A DNA stretch of 64,000 nucleotides from an uncultured Solirubrobacterales bacterium. GTDB lineage: Bacteria > Actinomycetota > Thermoleophilia > Solirubrobacterales > Solirubrobacteraceae. The notes under the pieces were generated by a model, which saw nothing but the letters and a program-made list of their open reading frames with translations, made no database searches and was not told the DNA's origin. Position 1 is the stretch's first letter; every line of letters starts with the position of its first letter. Of the stretch, positions 4,974-53,118 are shown piece by piece. The translations under genes were made by a program, and so were the position numbers. The stretch is from assembly GCA_963830465.1 (NCBI GenBank), contig CAWHME010000001.1, positions 127,515 to 191,514 of the forward strand, given 5' to 3'.

Positions 4974-5960
4974 CTATCCCGGTGCAGCGATCCGGCGAGT
5001 GGCTTCAAATCGCGGCTCCAGGCTCGGCGACTCGTACGGGGTCAGCCCGAAGAGCGCGATTGCGAGCAGAATGAACGGTGGCCCGGCGTTGGGGTCCGTC
5101 GCTCCCCCCTGGAAGATCCCTCCCAGCCCCTCCCCGAGTACCCAGTAGGCGAGGTTCAGCGCGATCGCGAGGGCCAGGAACAGACGTGGCCGCCAGTTGA
5201 CAGCGACCGCCACGCCGATCGCGGCCGATAGCAGCGCGAGCATGAGCGCGATCGGAAGGCCGTTCCCCTTGGCACCGCTCGCAACCCAGTCTTGGACAGT
5301 GCTCAGCCAGCTCATTCCCGACGGGGCAGCGTTGATCGAGTTACTGACCGCGTTCGCGCTGCTGCTGGGGGCCTCCAGCCACAGCCATGCCATCACGAGC
5401 CAGAGCACCGCCCAGGCGATCCTTGCGCCGCGGACTCCGAGCAGGCCGCCCGGTCGAGCGGTCGGCCACACGATCAGGCCGATGATCCCGTACAGCAGCA
5501 CCGCGCCGGGAGCGCCGGTGAGCGGGCTCGCCATCGTCATCAACAACATCCCGAACGACTCGCCGAACCACCACACGATCAGCGCCCACACGAACGACAG
5601 CGCCAGCGCCGGCTTCACCGTGCGGCGATAAAGCAATCCGAGACCGATCAGGACCTGGGTCAGCGCAAACAGCGTGTTGTAGACGGCCAGATTGTGCTGG
5701 GCCAGATGCGCGGCCCACTCGACGCTGCTCGCGACCCAGCCCGGCTGACCTGCCGTCATGTTGGTGAGCATTTGGATGAAGCCCTTGGAATACATGAACG
5801 ATTGGAACTGCAGGCCTCCATCCAGCAGCCACAGCAAGCCGAGGACGGTCTGGATCGTGCGCCGGGTATCCGACGCGAAGTACTCCCGCGCTCGCGCGAC
5901 TGCAGTGCTGCTGTCGGCGCGACCGACGGCGCCGGCCTCAAAGTTGGCAGCGCTACTCAC
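4974..5960 (-). CDS. Polytopic integral membrane protein, unassigned family
   Basis: Track ORF 4974..6584, but only the last ~329 codons are hydrophobic and protein-like. AAGGAGG sits 5 nt upstream of GTG 5960 (alternative ATG 5984). No REXXE motifs, so not FTR1/EfeU. Confidence 0.6.
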   Translation of the reverse strand: MSSAANFEAGAVGRADSSTAVARAREYFASDTRRTIQTVLGLLWLLDGGLQFQSFMYSKGFIQMLTNMTAGQPGWVASSVEWAAHLAQHNLAVYNTLFALTQVLIGLGLLYRRTVKPALALSFVWALIVWWFGESFGMLLMTMASPLTGAPGAVLLYGIIGLIVWPTARPGGLLGVRGARIAWAVLWLVMAWLWLEAPSSSANAVSNSINAAPSGMSWLSTVQDWVASGAKGNGLPIALMLALLSAAIGVAVAVNWRPRLFLALAIALNLAYWVLGEGLGGIFQGGATDPNAGPPFILLAIALFGLTPYESPSLEPRFEATRRIAAPG

Positions 5961-6142
5961 GTCTTCCTCCTTAGTCGGGGACATTCGCCAGGGACATGCG
6001 AGCACCGAGCATGACTTTCGACACCACGGCAAACCGACAATCGCGGCCACTGCGGCCGGTGCATCAGTCGCCGCTCGATTCGCGACGTCCCGTCGATCAA
6101 CCAGGGACCGGCGCTGACGCCAACCAGCGTCTCGCGCCGGCG

Positions 6143-6805
6143 TTACGCTGGTGGACCGCGACCCGACCAGCCGCCCGCGAGCGGAGCGAGCTTCGCGACC
6201 ACGACATCGCGAGGGCGAAGCCTTGGCAGGCTCCTCGCCACCTGCCGCGCACGCGGCCGCGGCCGACGGCGGGTCACCTCGTCGAGGACCCACCGGGTCC
6301 CGTGGAAGGCCGCCGCCAGCACCAAGCCGACGCAGAACGCCGCCGGCAGCGACCACCAGCCTCCGTAGCCGAAGACGCCGACGAGGCCGCCGGGATGCCC
6401 GAAGGCGAGCATCCCTTCGAGGAGCTCCTGACCGACATAGATCGCTACCAGCGATGCCGTGCAGATGAGCCACAGCGCGCCGAACGAGACGCTGTAGCGG
6501 GCAAGCGAGCACTGTCCGCCCAGCGCGCGCCCCAATGCGCGAAGGAAGACACCGACCGCGAGCGCCGCCAGCAACATGATCCATGGAGCGAGCGAATGCA
6601 GATACGAGTGACCTTGTCGCTGGAGCTCGAGACCGGCGCGAGTCCCGAACGCCAGCCAGTAGCGCAACTGATGGACCGCAAACGCGGCCGGCGGCAGCAG
6701 CGCAGCCGGCGCGAGGCTCGTGATCGACGCCCGCGGCTCGCCCGCGATTGCCTGGGGGAAACCGGCCTTCAGATGTGTGTCTGTGTGCTTCGCGCTGTGC
6801 GCCAT
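6143..6805 (-). CDS. Hypothetical membrane protein (~5 TM)
   Basis: Track ORF with several hydrophobic spans (WIMLLAALAVGVFL, ALWLICTASLVAIYV, WWSLPAAFCVGLVLAAAF). Co-directional with neighbours. Confidence 0.45.
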   Translation of the reverse strand: MAHSAKHTDTHLKAGFPQAIAGEPRASITSLAPAALLPPAAFAVHQLRYWLAFGTRAGLELQRQGHSYLHSLAPWIMLLAALAVGVFLRALGRALGGQCSLARYSVSFGALWLICTASLVAIYVGQELLEGMLAFGHPGGLVGVFGYGGWWSLPAAFCVGLVLAAAFHGTRWVLDEVTRRRPRPRARQVARSLPRLRPRDVVVAKLAPLAGGWSGRGPPA

Positions 6806-43510: not shown

Positions 43511-43911
43511 TCACCGTCGAGCCGCACCGAGACCGGCCCGGAGCACATTGACGCTGCTCGGATTCGAGGAAGCAGTCAGCTTGTGGCAGGCCGAGAGCTC
43601 GGCCGCGGTCAAGGACTCGTGCTGGTCTTTGAATAGGACTCCGGCTGACTTCCCATAGTACTCGTCCCCAGGACGCGTAAAGCCGGGGATGCTCACCTCG
43701 GGTTTGGGAGTCACCACGATGTTATGCACGAGGTCCTGGACCGTGAAATGCACCGTGCACGAGGTCCTGGACCGTGAAATGCACCGTGCACGAGGTCCTG
43801 GACCGTGAAATGCACCGTCGCGGTCCACACCTGGGCCTCGACCCATCCCTTCTGCCCGGGCGGGATCGTCAGCGTCGTGTCTCTTCCGTAGCTGGTTGAC
43901 ACGGTACCCAT
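43511..43911 (-). pseudogene. Small hypothetical gene split into two frames by a 31-bp x3 tandem repeat
   Basis: Track ORFs 43711..44022 and 43511..43846 both read TVHFTVQDLVH through one repeat copy. With a single copy they join as ...WTATVHFTVQDLVHNIVVTPKPEVSIPGF.... Confidence 0.6.
43726..43818. repeat. Perfect 31-bp tandem repeat, 3 copies (GCACGAGGTCCTGGACCGTGAAATGCACCGT)
   Basis: Copies at 43726-43756, 43757-43787 and 43788-43818, read directly from the sequence. Confidence 0.95.
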
Positions 43912-44241
43912 CTGCCTACTCGTGACTTTCGCGTCGATCGACGCTTTCCCGAACGCGGGACATCTCTGCGGATGCTTTGACGGAGAAACCGGCCATCCAC
44001 CGGGCCGGGCCTTTGGCGTCACAGCTCAGCTGGCGGGGACGCGCGCCCCATCCGCCCTCAGCCCAACCGAATGGGCTGGCCTACTCCCGGTGTGTCGAGG
44101 CCGTCTGCGCGCGTCCGGGCACCGCTAATGGGAGGGTCGGTATAGGGTCATCCCGATTGTGCCGCGGCAGTCGCGCGGAGATCATCGCTGATCCGGGTGG
44201 CGGCATGGCCCCCCGGTCAGCGGTTTTTCAAGGAGCGGAGG

Positions 44242-44433
44242 ATGGACGACAAGCGCAGACAGAAGTGGGAGGCAGGCGCGCGCGGGTTCCTCGAGCCCGG
44301 CGAGCAGGTGGTCGCTGCCGCGCCCGGGCAGAACGCGGAGAGGATGTGGCCGATTCCGTTCTTCGTCGATTCGATTGGCCTCCCGCTGCTCCAGCGCGCT
44401 CGCGGGAGGCTGTCGGAATATCGGTGTCGTCTG
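44242..44433 (+). pseudogene. 5' fragment of a small bacterial-PH-like gene truncated at the IS
   Basis: GGAGCGGAGG RBS before ATG 44242. MDDKRRQKWEAGARGFLEPGEQVVAAAPGQN... resembles N-termini of small actinobacterial PH-domain-like proteins. Coding sense is lost near 44434. Confidence 0.35.
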
Positions 44434-44456
44434 GCGGGTTTAAGACACTTCTCGGT

Positions 44457-44544
44457 ATGGCTCGAGATTTCGTTTCGTGTGAGCGCGGCCAGTTGTTGTT
44501 GATGCCGCTGTCGCTGTTGGAGTGGCTGCCTGAGGATCACTTGG
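44457..44544 (+). pseudogene. IS1182-family transposase, exon 1
   Basis: MARDFVSCERGQLLLMPLSLLEWLPEDHL is the typical DUF772/IS1182 N-terminus. Confidence 0.7.
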
Positions 44545-44910
44545 GTAGCGCCGGGATAAACCGGCATGGAGAAGGAGCTGAGAGGGCTCTACGTCGAAGG
44601 TGTAGCGATCCACGACGGCCCCGAGTCATGCGTCGGCGCCCGCGAGGGCGTCGGCGAAGTGTTGACAGGGGTGCGCGTAGGCTGGGCTATTGAGCCTCGA
44701 AATTCCTGCATTCAGGGCGCCGACGCCGTCCAGGTGGCGGAAGGCAATACCGCCGGCAGCGTTTTCGCGAGCCGTCGGCGGGCTCTGCGGGGTCAGGGAA
44801 CCTGTGCATGCGCGCGATCTCTCGATGCGCGAGAACCGGGAGGTCCCACGGTCACCCGCTTGTGGTGATGGTTGGGTGGGTCGTGCGGGGAAGGCTGAGG
44901 CCGTAATCCC

Positions 44911-46404
44911 GTGATGGACGATCGTGGGAAGTCAGACGGTCCTGTAGTACCTGCGAAGCTGCCGAACAACGCCCAGGGCGGGGTGGCGGAGGTGGTGGAG
45001 GGAAGAGGACCGGCCAAGGGGAACGCGGCCAGGGAAACACGCGCCGGACTCAGAGCCGGGATTGGCGTGTCCAATGACCTGGATCGTGTGCGCCGAGCGG
45101 CTCGGAAGGATAAGGATGCTCAGTTCACCGCGCTCCTGCACCACGTCGACGTTGACCTTCTTCGGGCTGCGTACTTCGCGCTTCGGCCGAAGGCCGCTCC
45201 CGGAGTGGATGGCGTGACGTGGGCGGATTACGGGCTGAATCTCGAGGGGAACCTTCGGGACCTGCACGCTCGAGTCCACCGCGGGGGCTACCGGGCGAAG
45301 CCGTCACGGAGGGCGTTCATCCCGAAGGCCGACGGGCGGCAGCGGCCGCTCGGCGTCGCTGCGCTGGAGGACAAGATCCTGCAGCGGGCGCTGGTCGAGG
45401 TGCTGAATGCGATCTACGAGTCGGACTTTGTCGGGTTCTCGTATGGGTTTCGGCCGGGGCGGCGTCCGCATGATGCGTTGGACGCGCTCGCGGCTGGGAT
45501 CAAGACGAGGCATGTGAACTGGGTGCTCGACGCGGATTTCCGCGAGTTCTTCACCAGCCTTGACCATCGGTGGCTGGTGAGGTTCCTGGAGCACCGAATC
45601 GCGGACAGGAGGGTCCTGCGTCTGATCCAGCGATGGCTCAGCGCAGGGGTCATTGAGGAGGGGTCATGGACGGCGTGTGAGGAGGGTGTCCCTCAAGGGG
45701 CGTCAGCGTCGCCGCTGTTGGCGAACGTGTACCTGCACTACGTCTTCGACCTGTGGGCTCATCAGTGGAGAGGTCGGCACGCGCGCGGCGAGGTAGTGAT
45801 CGTGCGCTTCGCCGATGACTTCGTGGTGGGGTTCGAGTACCGGAGCGACGCGCTGCGGTTCTGGGCAGATCTCCGCGACAGGCTCGCGCAGTTCTGCTTG
45901 GAGCTCAACGCGGACAAGACGCGCCTGATCGAGTTCGGCCGGTTCGCCGCCGAGCGCCGAGGGGCGCATGGTCGCGGCAAGCCGGAGACGTTCCAGTTCC
46001 TGGGCTTCACGCACTGCTGCGCGCAGACCAGGAGGGGAAGGTTCAAGCTCAAGCGAATCACCGACTCGAAGCGGATGCGGACGAAGCTGGGCGAGGTCAA
46101 GGCCACGCTCATCCAACGCCGAGATCTGCCCATTCCCGAGCAGGCCCGCTGGCTCGCCAGCGTCCTGCGCGGGCACTGCAATTACTACGCGGTGCCCGAC
46201 AACTACGAGGCGATCAACGCCTTCCGCCAGCTAATCATCCGGCACTGGCTCAAGGCGCTGCGGCGTCGCAGCCAGCGGTCTCGGCTGACCTGGCAGCGGA
46301 TGTATCTCCTCGCGGAACGATGGCTACCTCCCGTTCAGATACTGCACCCCTGGCCCGAGCCTCGCTTCTACGCCAACACCCAAGGCAGGAGCCCAGTGCG
46401 TTAA
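44911..46404 (+). CDS. Group II intron reverse transcriptase/maturase (no endonuclease domain)
   Basis: FTALLHHV, APGVDGVTW, RRAFIPKADGRQRPLGV, GVPQGASASPLLANVYL, RFADDFVVGF (YADD-type) and RGHCNYYAVPDN (X domain). The true start may be GTG 45067. Confidence 0.9.
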   Translation: MMDDRGKSDGPVVPAKLPNNAQGGVAEVVEGRGPAKGNAARETRAGLRAGIGVSNDLDRVRRAARKDKDAQFTALLHHVDVDLLRAAYFALRPKAAPGVDGVTWADYGLNLEGNLRDLHARVHRGGYRAKPSRRAFIPKADGRQRPLGVAALEDKILQRALVEVLNAIYESDFVGFSYGFRPGRRPHDALDALAAGIKTRHVNWVLDADFREFFTSLDHRWLVRFLEHRIADRRVLRLIQRWLSAGVIEEGSWTACEEGVPQGASASPLLANVYLHYVFDLWAHQWRGRHARGEVVIVRFADDFVVGFEYRSDALRFWADLRDRLAQFCLELNADKTRLIEFGRFAAERRGAHGRGKPETFQFLGFTHCCAQTRRGRFKLKRITDSKRMRTKLGEVKATLIQRRDLPIPEQARWLASVLRGHCNYYAVPDNYEAINAFRQLIIRHWLKALRRRSQRSRLTWQRMYLLAERWLPPVQILHPWPEPRFYANTQGRSPVR

Positions 46405-46460
46405 CGCGCACGCTGGGATCTGTGCGGGGGGCCGTCGGCAACGGCGGTCCCTACCGCGAT
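46389..46460 (+). ncRNA. Group II intron domains V and VI
   Basis: GAGCCCA-GUGCG-loop-CGCAC-GC(bulge)-UGGGAUC with an AGC triad. Followed by UGCGG/GGG...CCC-UA-CCGCG helix ending ...CGCGAU. Confidence 0.6.
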
Positions 46461-47912
46461 CGTGGGCGATCTTGGGTGCGGTTGATCAGATGGATCTGGG
46501 TCGCTTTCGGGAGGGGTATCGGCTGGGTGGGGCGGGTCGGCCGGCGTATGACCCGGCGATGCTAGTGGCGCTGCTTTTGTATGCGTATGCGCGGGGGAAC
46601 CGGTCCTCGCGTCAGATTGAGCGGGGGTGCTGGGAGGATGTCGCCTACAAGGTGATCACGAGCATGCGGGTGCCGGATCACTCGACGATCGCGGAGTTCC
46701 GACGCCGGCACGAGAGCGAGATCGCCGAGCTGTTCGATGATGTGCTTGGGCTGTGCGGGGAGGCGGGGCTTGTGTCGGGCGGGGTGATTCTGGTCGACGG
46801 GACGAGGATCAAGGCGAACGCGTCGATGGATCAGAACCGCTCCTACTCGGGCTTGGTCAGGGAGATCCTGCGTGAGGCTGAGGAGACCGACCGGCGTGAG
46901 GACGAGCTCTACGGTGATGCGCGTGGGGATGAGTTGCCTAAAGCAGCTGCGCACCAGCGACGCTCGACGCGCGGCGCTGGCGGAGGCCAAGCGGCGGATC
47001 GAGGAGCGCAAAGGCCGCGCGGTCGGCCCGCAGGAGCCCGACGGGGACGTCGAGATGGATCCGGAGTTGGTGCTCGGCCGGGGTGGTCGGCGTGGGGGGC
47101 GACGCGAGTGGCCTCGGGTCGCGCGCCGCGAGCTGGAGTCGCGGCGGGAGCGCCAGGCAGACCCGATCCCGCGCGATCGAGAGGACCGTCTCTTTCAAGC
47201 GCTCGGTCGGCTTGAGGAGAACCACAGGGTCGATCTGGCAGCCAACGACGCCTACCAGCGCTGGCGCTCAAGCTCGCGCGACACGCTCGGGCGCCGGTTG
47301 AAGGGCAACAGCAAGCCGTATCTGCCGCCGGACGCGCCGGAGGGGCAGGTCAACCTGTCCGATCCGGATTCGCGGGTGATGCGCAGCAAGGGGCTGCCGC
47401 ACCGCCAGGCCTATAACGTGCAGACCGCGGTGACTGAGCGACAGATCATCCTCGCCGCCGAGATCCCGCCGGACGCGCCCGACTTCGGGCACCTGGAGCC
47501 GATGCTCGAGGTGACGCTCGCTCACCTGCACCACCACAGCATCACCGAGCAGCCCGAGGCGCTCGTCGCTGACGCCGGCTACTGGCACACCCGCCAGATC
47601 CAGGCGATCCAAGAACGCGGGATCGAGGTGCTCGTCCCGCCCGACGGCGCGATGCGCGAGGGCAACCGCCCCGGCTGGGAGAACGGGCTCTACCAGCAGA
47701 TGCGAGAAAAGCTCGACACCGCGCGCGGCCGCGCGCTCTACGCCCTGCGCAAAACCACGATCGAGCCTGTGTTCGGACAGATCAAATACAACCGGCGCGT
47801 CGATCAGTTCATGCGAACAGGCAGAGCCGCCGTGCACTCGGAGCTGCGGTTGCTGGCAGCAACACACAACATGCTCAAGCTCCACAACCACTGGATCGCC
47901 AACACCGCCTGA
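46461..47912 (+). pseudogene. IS1182-family transposase, exon 2, with a +1 frameshift near 46940
   Basis: WAILGAVDQMDLGRF...AYDPAMLVALLLYAYARGNRSSRQIE...GDELP (frame of 46472), then KQLRTSDARRAALAEAKRRIEE...ADAGYWH...EPVFGQIKYNRR (frame of 46872). Confidence 0.8.
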
Positions 47913-48007
47913 GGAAACACGCCGCCCCCCCGCCCGGCGAGCGGTCCCGCCAAACCGCAGACCATCCAAACCTCGCTGTCTCCGCATTTTTCAACAGCCT
48001 CGCGGCT

Positions 48008-48239
48008 ATGTCGTCACCGAGCGCCACATTTTACCTGTGTCGCCTGAGCTCACTGCACAACAACAAGGTCGAGGAGGTGCTCGTGAAGCGACGGCTGGGT
48101 GACGTCCAGATCCAGTTTCGCCGCAACCGCCTGACGCTCGACGGGCGCGATCCCGTTTACGTCGGCTGGCTACCGGGCGCGCGAGGTGGTCGCCGCGGCG
48201 AGCGCGAACGCGCCGGACGACGTCGCCGCGAAGCTCTGA
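48008..48239 (+). pseudogene. 3' fragment of a PH-like gene with an internal frameshift
   Basis: FYLCRLSSLHNNKVEEVLVKRRLGDVQIQFRRNRLTLDGRDPVYV. A natural-looking tail SAGYRAREVVAAASANAPDDVAAKL-stop follows in another frame. Confidence 0.35.
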
Positions 48240-49020: not shown

Positions 49021-49250
49021 GTCGTTGGCGGGGGTTGGCGTGTGGGGTGTTGGGTGGGTGCAGTTGGCGGGGGCTGGCCGATGGGATGTTGGGGGGTGCG
49101 GTCGGCAGGGTTGGCGGGCGGAGCGGGGGTGCGGTCGGCGGGGTTGGCGGGCGGAGCGGGGGTGCGGTCGGCGGGGTTGGCGGGCGGAGCGGGGTGTTGG
49201 CGGGTGCGGTCGGCAGGGTTGGCGTGAGGGGTTTCGGCGGGTGCGTCGGC
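49021..49250. repeat. G-rich degenerate tandem tract with a 33-bp x3 core (49096-49194)
   Basis: Core unit GTGCGGTCGGCGGGGTTGGCGGGCGGAGCGGGG. Units 2 and 3 are identical and unit 1 has one change. Degenerate GGGGTTGGCG-like copies flank the core. Confidence 0.9.
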
Positions 49251-49591: not shown

Positions 49592-49757
49592 TCCGCCGAC
49601 CGGCGGCCCTCTCGCGGCCGGCGGCCCCGCCGGCCGGGCCGCCCGCGGCGCGCGGCCCCGGGCGGTGTCGCGCTGCGCCCGCGCGGCGGAGAGAGGATCC
49701 CGGTTGCCTTCGCGATCGCGCTGGTCAAGCCTGCCCCTGCAAGCTTCAGGTGCGCGA

Positions 49758-49868
49758 GCGCGATCTCGCTGGCTCGGTCCACACCGGCGCGCAAGCGCGA
49801 TCTCGCTGGCTCGGTCCACACCGGCGCGCAAGCGCGATCTCGTTGGCTCGGTCCACACCGGCGCGCGA
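49758..49868. repeat. 37-bp tandem repeat x3 (plus partial flanking copies), iteron-like
   Basis: GCGCGATCTCGCTGGCTCGGTCCACACCGGCGCGCAA at 49758, 49795 and 49832. The third copy has 2 changes. Confidence 0.95.
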
Positions 49869-49931
49869 GCGCGACGGCACGCTCGGGGTGCTCCCGGGCG
49901 TCACCGCTGTCGCCACATACCCGACAAACCT

Positions 49932-53045: not shown

Positions 53046-53118
53046 AGTGGACGACGGGTCTCGAACCAGCGACCTTCGGCTTGGGAAGCCGACGCTCTAC
53101 CAACTGAGCTACGTCCGC
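53046..53118 (-). tRNA. tRNA-Gly (anticodon CCC), with two helix mismatches; CCA not encoded
   Basis: Hand-folded cloverleaf: acceptor GCGGACG/CGTCCAC (C2-A71 mismatch), D arm GCTC/GAGC, anticodon arm TCGGC-TTCCCAA-GCCGA, T arm GCTGG-TTCGAGA-CCCGT (U51-C63 mismatch). Confidence 0.7.

Follow-up and report, generated by a model that had tools for sequence, protein, structure and literature searches.

How can a transposase gene lose its coding sense after 29 codons and regain it almost two kilobases downstream on the same strand? This question is raised by a 64,000-nt stretch of DNA (hereafter, the window) in contig CAWHME010000001.1 of the assembly GCA_963830465.1, from an uncultured Solirubrobacterales bacterium. 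By its sequence, the interruption is a group II intron. It lies in the transposase gene of an IS1182-family insertion sequence (IS), where it follows the first base of codon 30 and has the same orientation as the gene. The intron spans positions 44545 to 46460 (1916 nt, 5′-GUAGCG...CGCGAU-3′) and separates transposase exon 1 (44457 to 44544) from exon 2 (46461 to 47912). Positions are those of the window, and all features lie on the (+) strand unless marked otherwise. We consider it very probable that an IS1182-family element was inserted at this locus and that its transposase gene holds a mobile, endonuclease-less group II intron, which homes through its exon-binding site 1 (EBS1) to DNA constrained by the transposase protein.

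The two exons were delimited by reading the open reading frame (ORF) and by tblastn. Exon 1 comprises codons 1 to 29 and the first base of codon 30; its ATG at 44457 opens MARDFVSCERGQLLLMPLSLLEWLPEDHL, and similarity to transposases is lost after 44543. Exon 2 runs from the last two bases of codon 30 to the stop codon. A 512-aa homologue (P0001) aligned as three pieces, namely, residues 1 to 29 before 44544 (93% identity with exon 1), residues 31 to 190 from 46463, where the transposase resumes with W directly after the intron, and residues 190 to 512 in the next frame. An earlier note on this DNA, made from the letters alone, had proposed that the N-terminus is cut off here, that the same strand resumes the transposase, and that 44544 and 46461 can be joined in frame. 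All three proposals held, and the join restores the codon GCG, giving ...LPEDHLAWAILGAVDQMDL. The intervening 1916 nt contain a reverse transcriptase (RT)/maturase ORF and domains V and VI, in agreement with the earlier note, which had described a domain V/VI-like 3′ end.

The protein was reconstructed by joining 44544 to 46461 and deleting one A at 46940 to 46942, which yields 512 aa. This spliced and repaired transposase matched NCBIfam NF033551 (IS1182 family transposase) at 301.1 bits (cut-off, 270) and Pfam DUF772, DDE_Tnp_1, and DDE_Tnp_1_6. It has thousands of homologues with identity up to 88%, many of which, dozens at least, are exactly 512 aa long and aligned at 100% coverage, so the predicted collinearity with IS1182-family transposases was borne out. 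The homologues named to a taxon are mostly from Solirubrobacterales, and a genome scan for the IS detected 46 loci, the majority in metagenome-assembled genomes of this order.

The intron boundaries were set by comparison with intron-less copies and with seven other occupied sites. Three intron-less copies of the IS from Solirubrobacterales genomes (L001, L002, and L038; 88% nucleotide identity) are uninterrupted across the site and read ...GAGGATCATTTGG↓TGTGGACG..., where the arrow marks the junction; they show the joined sequence that had been predicted, ...GATCATTTGG↓TGTGGACG. The window site reads ...GAGGATCACTTGG↓GTAGCG...CGCGAT↓CGTGGGCG..., with no base gained or lost relative to these copies. 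Identical boundaries were found at eight occupied sites, including that of the window. We placed the intron at 44545 to 46460 because moving the boundary by one base gave a poorer fit to the intron-less codon (GTG or GCG) in all copies.

The insert contains the characteristic parts of a group II ribozyme. A portion of domain I (44581 to 44802) matched the Rfam model group-II-D1D4-6 (RF02005) over its full length (model positions 1 to 225) at 182.9 bits, compared with a gathering score of 49. A focused search with Intron_gpII (RF00029, domains V and VI) gave a match at 46387 to 46460 with 35 bits (E 1.4e-4). The end of this match, which has the usual ...CUACCGCGAU, coincides to the base with the predicted 3′ splice site, and the intron ends in AU at position 46460. 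Domain V (GAGCCCAGUGCGUUAACGCGCACGCUGGGAUC, 46389 to 46420) lies in the Intron_gpII match and is predicted to fold as a hairpin bearing a 2-nt bulge. Of the domain V alignment cells of 21 distinct relatives, 99.6% pair, and four of the 12 pairs have changed on both sides; in control registers slid by one to three columns, only 16 to 47% pair. Domain VI (46424 to 46457) was assigned from its predicted fold, which has a bulged UA at 46452 to 46453, and from the alignment of its CUAC motif with the consensus of the Rfam model. In this model, A46453, 7 nt upstream of the 3′ splice site, is the likely branch point. The fold of the domain V/VI segment had a z-score of −3.5.

The RT/maturase ORF (44914 to 46404), assigned to domain IV, is intact and encodes 496 aa. 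The protein matched NCBIfam TIGR04416 (group II intron RT/maturase) at 336.3 bits (cut-off, 300) and Pfam RVT_1 with an E value of 5e-36; the match to Pfam GIIM was borderline (22.7 bits, cut-off 23). A domain search of the protein gave no match to HNH or another endonuclease, and only approximately 34 aa lie C-terminal to the GIIM match. Among solved structures, those nearest to it are RTs of group II introns (GsI-IIC RT, LtrA, and others). The ratio of nonsynonymous to synonymous divergence (dN/dS) of the RT ORF among intron copies was 0.13 to 0.23; the ORF is under purifying selection.

Two details of this ORF were observed. Its stop codon, TAA (46402 to 46404), is located within the loop of domain V. 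All 21 distinct relatives have TAA or TAG at this place in the loop, so that the T and the following A never vary; the ORF therefore extends into the catalytic hairpin throughout the family. RT motif 5 (45810 to 45821) reads FADD in place of YADD, and the relative L055 has FCDD.

Target recognition was analyzed through the pairing of EBS1 with the intron-binding site 1 (IBS1) of the exon. EBS1 (CCAGGUG, 44730 to 44736) is located in a hairpin loop of domain I, and IBS1 (CACUUGG, 44538 to 44544) makes up the final 7 nt of the 5′ exon; together they form 7 bp, one of which is G.U. Approximately 20 relatives have unrelated exons, and in these, too, the EBS1 loop is the complement of the terminal 5 to 7 nt of the 5′ exon. 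The EBS1/IBS1 pairs include CACAAC/GUUGUG, CGCCAG/CUGGCG, CAAAAU/AUUUUG, UCCUUG/CAAGGA, CCCAGU/ACUGGG, and CAUAGA/UCUAUG. Within the IS-borne group, a compensatory change was found between the window (exon CAC, EBS1 CCAGGUG) and L051 (exon CAU, EBS1 CCAAAUG). This complementarity and covariation identify EBS1 and confirm the 5′ splice site. Read in the same register, the 5′ ends of relatives (loci L052 to L123) are GUGCGCC (L072 among them), GAGCGCC, GCGGCGCC, or GAAAGCGCC.

Two candidates for EBS2 in domain I were compared with the exons, and neither covaries with them convincingly. GAUCC (44606 to 44610) could pair with the exon sequence GGAUC, but it is conserved among relatives whose exons are unrelated. 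A variable loop at 44703 to 44714 (UUCCUGCAUUCA) offers only about 4 bp.

A metagenome scan with the RT protein detected 80 related loci. The closest relatives are in seven other assemblies, which carry the same intron at the same junction (L005, which came from the genome scan, L047, L048, L049, L050/L080, and L051). These introns are 1916 to 1917 nt long, and their RT ORFs share 90 to 95% nucleotide identity. The host transposases of L048 and L051 are only 45 to 49% identical to that of the window at the amino acid level, and their exon 2 has no detectable nucleotide similarity to it. The local target GGATCAYYTGG↓YGTGG is conserved in both loci despite the divergence of exon 2. The target motif ...GAGGATCAYYTGG↓YGTGG encodes (E)DHL↓xW of the transposase. 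Because the same intron occupies the same junction in transposases only 45 to 49% identical, the lineage has evidently changed hosts. These comparisons suggest that it moves between IS copies by homing to the DNA of the conserved motif LPEDHL↓xW and that it is not restricted to hitch-hiking.

From these data, the following course can be proposed. The IS would have been inserted at this locus, apparently into a small ORF, creating a 4-bp duplication. The intron would recognize its DNA target chiefly by base pairing of EBS1 with the terminal 7 nt of the 5′ exon, a stretch that falls in the DNA for the conserved transposase motif LPEDHL↓(V/A)W. Diverged IS1182-family elements would offer one and the same homing site because the protein constrains the target DNA, and the intron could have spread among them by retrohoming. 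Its RNA would reverse-splice into the target strand, and reverse transcription would be primed by the nascent DNA strand at the replication fork, as in the endonuclease-less intron RmInt1. The intron would also be spliced from the transposase transcript. An intact host IS could then produce the full-length transposase only from spliced mRNA, and the intron would therefore throttle IS transposition while riding on the IS.

Several points weigh against this interpretation. The domain V/VI covariance match (35 bits) is under the Rfam gathering score of 40; domain V is also supported by the compensatory changes in relatives, and none of the three tests proposed in the earlier note (collinearity, covariance models, and intron-less copies) refuted its reading. 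In the window intron and in all relatives, the AGC triad of domain V has its G (46391/46418) opposite A, not the usual U. The canonical group II 5′ end is GUGYG (GUGCG). That of the present intron, GUAGCG, has one extra A, and its position is fixed by the intron-less alleles; this non-canonical end appears to be a family feature, although the relative L072 begins GUGCGCC. Comparison of the two domain I candidates with the exons gave no confident location for EBS2. The exact RT protein, with either an ATG or a GTG start, has no record elsewhere, and no second copy of the IS or intron was found in the 64-kb window; neither result speaks for recent activity in the source genome. We infer both splicing and mobility from sequence comparison, and priming at the replication fork is suggested by analogy. 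GC skew across the window was mixed and uninformative on replication orientation. Splicing alone would not give a transposase from the window copy, unless the additional A in exon 2 is a sequencing error.

This additional A lies in an AAA run at 46940 to 46942, where the window reads CCTAAAG and relatives read CC(C/T)(G/A)AG. It is missing from all 14 aligned relatives, each of which is one nt shorter. The frame switches at transposase residue 190, after which the protein is truncated. The window copy has no single uninterrupted transposase ORF of the kind that marks a functional IS copy, as both the intron and the codon-190 frameshift break it. The earlier note placed the resumption of exon 2 correctly and overlooked this second lesion. 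Its claim that transposase production depends on splicing applies to the arrangement in general, since conceptual splicing of L005 gives an intact 512-aa transposase ORF; it does not hold for the window copy as assembled, where the frameshift also blocks the enzyme. The IS copy in the window is probably inactive unless the extra base is an assembly error, and the intron looks intact.

One alternative is that the composite moved as DNA, that is, an intron-bearing IS transposed to this locus and no homing into this copy took place. This account is compatible with homing elsewhere in the lineage, and we regard it as possible, at somewhat below an even chance. It is in line with the 4-bp direct repeat that bounds the entire 3.6-kb composite and with the sharing of both intron and IS type by the window, L005, and L047, whose exons 1 and 2 are 91 to 96% and 86% identical, respectively. 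As the spliced ORF of L005 is intact, carrying the intron need not stop an IS from transposing, provided that splicing takes place. However, the intron is less diverged than its host between the window and L005: the synonymous divergence (dS) is 0.24 in the intron ORF and 0.42 in the transposase. The presence of the same intron in transposases only 45 to 49% identical and the matched EBS1/IBS1 changes in the window likewise argue against transposition of the composite as DNA.

It is less likely, and in our view improbable, that the whole composite is a decaying relic in which the IS has died by frameshift and the intron has lost both splicing and mobility. The frameshift absent from 14 of 14 relatives fits such decay, as do the host transposases of L047, which is likewise frameshifted (at codon 64), and of L048, which is interrupted and carries a second intron. 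The single copy in the window and the lack of any other record of the exact RT protein point the same way. However, the RT ORF is full length without stops, and the dN/dS of 0.13 to 0.23 among copies indicates purifying selection. The intron also retains domain V, domain VI, EBS1, and both splice sites in intact form, like those of active-looking relatives, and the extra A, a single base in a homopolymer, could have arisen in assembly. A chimeric assembly of an intron contig and an IS contig is scarcely credible: all relatives are from metagenome-assembled genomes or metagenome contigs, in which repeats misassemble easily, but both junctions are precise to the base and recur in at least seven independent assemblies from different samples, and removal of the intron restores the exact in-frame sequence of homologues. 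Homing of an endonuclease-less intron into IS1182-family transposase genes is our preferred interpretation.

The limits of the host element were determined by alignment of IS loci. Its left end is at 44406 (beginning GAGGCTGTCGGAATAT...), and its right end is at 48001 (ending ...CAACAGCCTC). The earlier note had set the limits at 44434 and 48036, and these were corrected by the aligned IS copies and the GCGG repeat. The IS measures 3596 bp, of which 1680 bp remain when the intron is excluded. Its left terminal inverted repeat (GAGGCTGTCGGAATATCGGT, 44406 to 44425) was placed where conservation in seven IS copies begins, and its right terminal inverted repeat (...CCGCATTTTTCAACAGCCTC, 47982 to 48001) is the terminal block conserved in nine aligned copies. 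These repeats are imperfect: the first 8 nt match the other end exactly, and 13 of the first 16 positions match. A direct repeat, GCGG, was read at 44402 to 44405, immediately 3′ of which similarity to relatives begins, and again at 48002 to 48005; it is a putative target-site duplication. Judged by its ends and its transposase, the host element is an IS1182-family IS.

A hairpin at the left end of the IS (44450 to 44467, TCTCGG-TATGGC-TCGAGA) has the transposase ATG within its loop, and a T-rich run lies directly after it. Such a structure may act by translation occlusion or transcription attenuation. A promoter scan found no sigma-70-like site, and such a scan is uninformative for a high-GC actinobacterium.

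When the IS and one GCGG copy were removed, an ORF joined across the site (44197 to 44405 and 48006 to 48105), reading ...LPLLQRARG↓YVVTERHILPVS... A small gene was probably disrupted by the IS; no Pfam family matched the ORF formed by the join. Three tandem repeat arrays are located near the IS, at 43725 to 43818 (31 nt × 3.0, 100% identical), 49092 to 49194 (33 nt × 3.1, 98% identical), and 49752 to 49874 (37 nt × 3.3, 96% identical). A tRNA gene at 53046 to 53118 (−) (Rfam tRNA, 58.7 bits) is unrelated to the intron and the IS.

Other IS copies and other introns of the family showed further insertions. Three copies of the same IS in other genomes are split at L032 (3379 to 5001), L041 (3375 to 5010), and L004 (3478 to 5000). 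We considered these 1.5 to 1.6-kb insertions as possible introns and ruled this out, as they had no Rfam match; judged by sequence motifs alone, they encode IS110-like and IS30-like transposases, with one IS30-like element at transposase codon 64 and one IS110-like element near codon 43. A related intron, with an RT approximately 80% identical, lies antisense in the C-terminal HNxxKLH motif (around codons 495 to 497) of IS1182-family transposases at L048, L052, L053, and L056. At L048, this antisense intron is at 5560 to 6688, and the same IS also holds the sense intron at codon 30. Many relatives have other group II introns as hosts and interrupt their RT ORFs, in some cases after FLGFTHxC, and others are in tandem or nested with another intron (L060, L066, L067, L075, L077, L079, L080, L081, L085, L086, L088, L099, L101, L104, L112, L118, and L122). 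In four relatives, the 3′ end adjoins GUGCGCCCGGCAUGACC, the 5′ end of another intron.

Group II introns within IS transposase genes are already well known, and the classic case is RmInt1 in the transposase gene of ISRm2011-2 of Sinorhizobium meliloti (PMC4238363, PMC3035460). Another intron, RmInt2, sits in an inverted repeat of ISRm17 (PMC3552965). It is established that RmInt1 retrohomes independently of an endonuclease, with the nascent DNA of replication forks serving as primer (PMC3035460). Expression of its host transposase needs splicing, the efficiency of which was measured at only 0.07% in vivo, and the intron has been argued to restrain its host and limit the spread of the IS (PMC3035460, PMC4238363).

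The window intron resembles RmInt1 in several respects. Both are approximately 1.9 kb long and encode a protein with RT and maturase domains and no DNA-binding/endonuclease region, a lack that is typical of bacterial class D (RmInt1-like) introns. Neither PMC3552965 nor the plasmid relatives led to an assignment among classes D, E, F, and g1 to g4. Both have their homing site inside an IS, in sense orientation. They differ in the length of the protein (496 aa, compared with approximately 419 aa in RmInt1) and in the 5′ end of the window intron, GUAGCG. The host IS here belongs to the IS1182 family, unlike ISRm2011-2, which is an IS630-type element. The host phylum also differs, as the bacterium is probably a member of Solirubrobacterales (Actinomycetota), and the window system is known from sequence alone. 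Among introns related through RF02005, those on proteobacterial plasmids (Burkholderia cenocepacia J2315, Ralstonia solanacearum, Acidithiobacillus ferrooxidans, and Skermanella) encode RT proteins, annotated as ltrA or group II intron RT/maturase, that align over the whole length with only 57 to 60% identity.

Bacterial group II introns are generally found 'hiding' in mobile elements, and the relatives of the window intron conform to this pattern, with IS1182 transposases and the RT genes of further introns as their hosts. What distinguishes the present case is that one lineage occupies one homologous codon in transposases down to 45% identity, a detail not found in the literature examined. 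We found no paper there that specifically ties a group II intron to IS1182-family transposases; twelve papers mention both subjects, none of them with both in its title. The most interesting extension is the family-wide pattern, with sister lineages antisense in a C-terminal motif of the same transposases or within RT genes that belong to other introns. The intron lineage may be specialized on a protein-constrained IS1182 motif, using the IS family as a dispersed, horizontally travelling homing site, while its sisters use other motifs of selfish genes, namely, the antisense HNxxKLH site and the RT motifs of other introns. Taken together, these habits would form a systematic 'parasite of parasites' strategy among soil Actinomycetota, and we judge the odds of this whole reading to be even.

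The biology is expected and not surprising: the IS would be a safe harbour for the intron and the intron a brake for the IS. The 7-bp EBS1/IBS1 pairing and the target sequence are defined and open to direct testing. The locus illustrates how an intron can secure a lasting homing site when its target is DNA whose sequence is fixed by protein function. In a host clade, probably Solirubrobacterales, that is little studied, it provides a clean natural example of a retroelement in a DNA transposon beyond the rhizobial RmInt1, with occupied, empty, and diverged host sites that can be compared.

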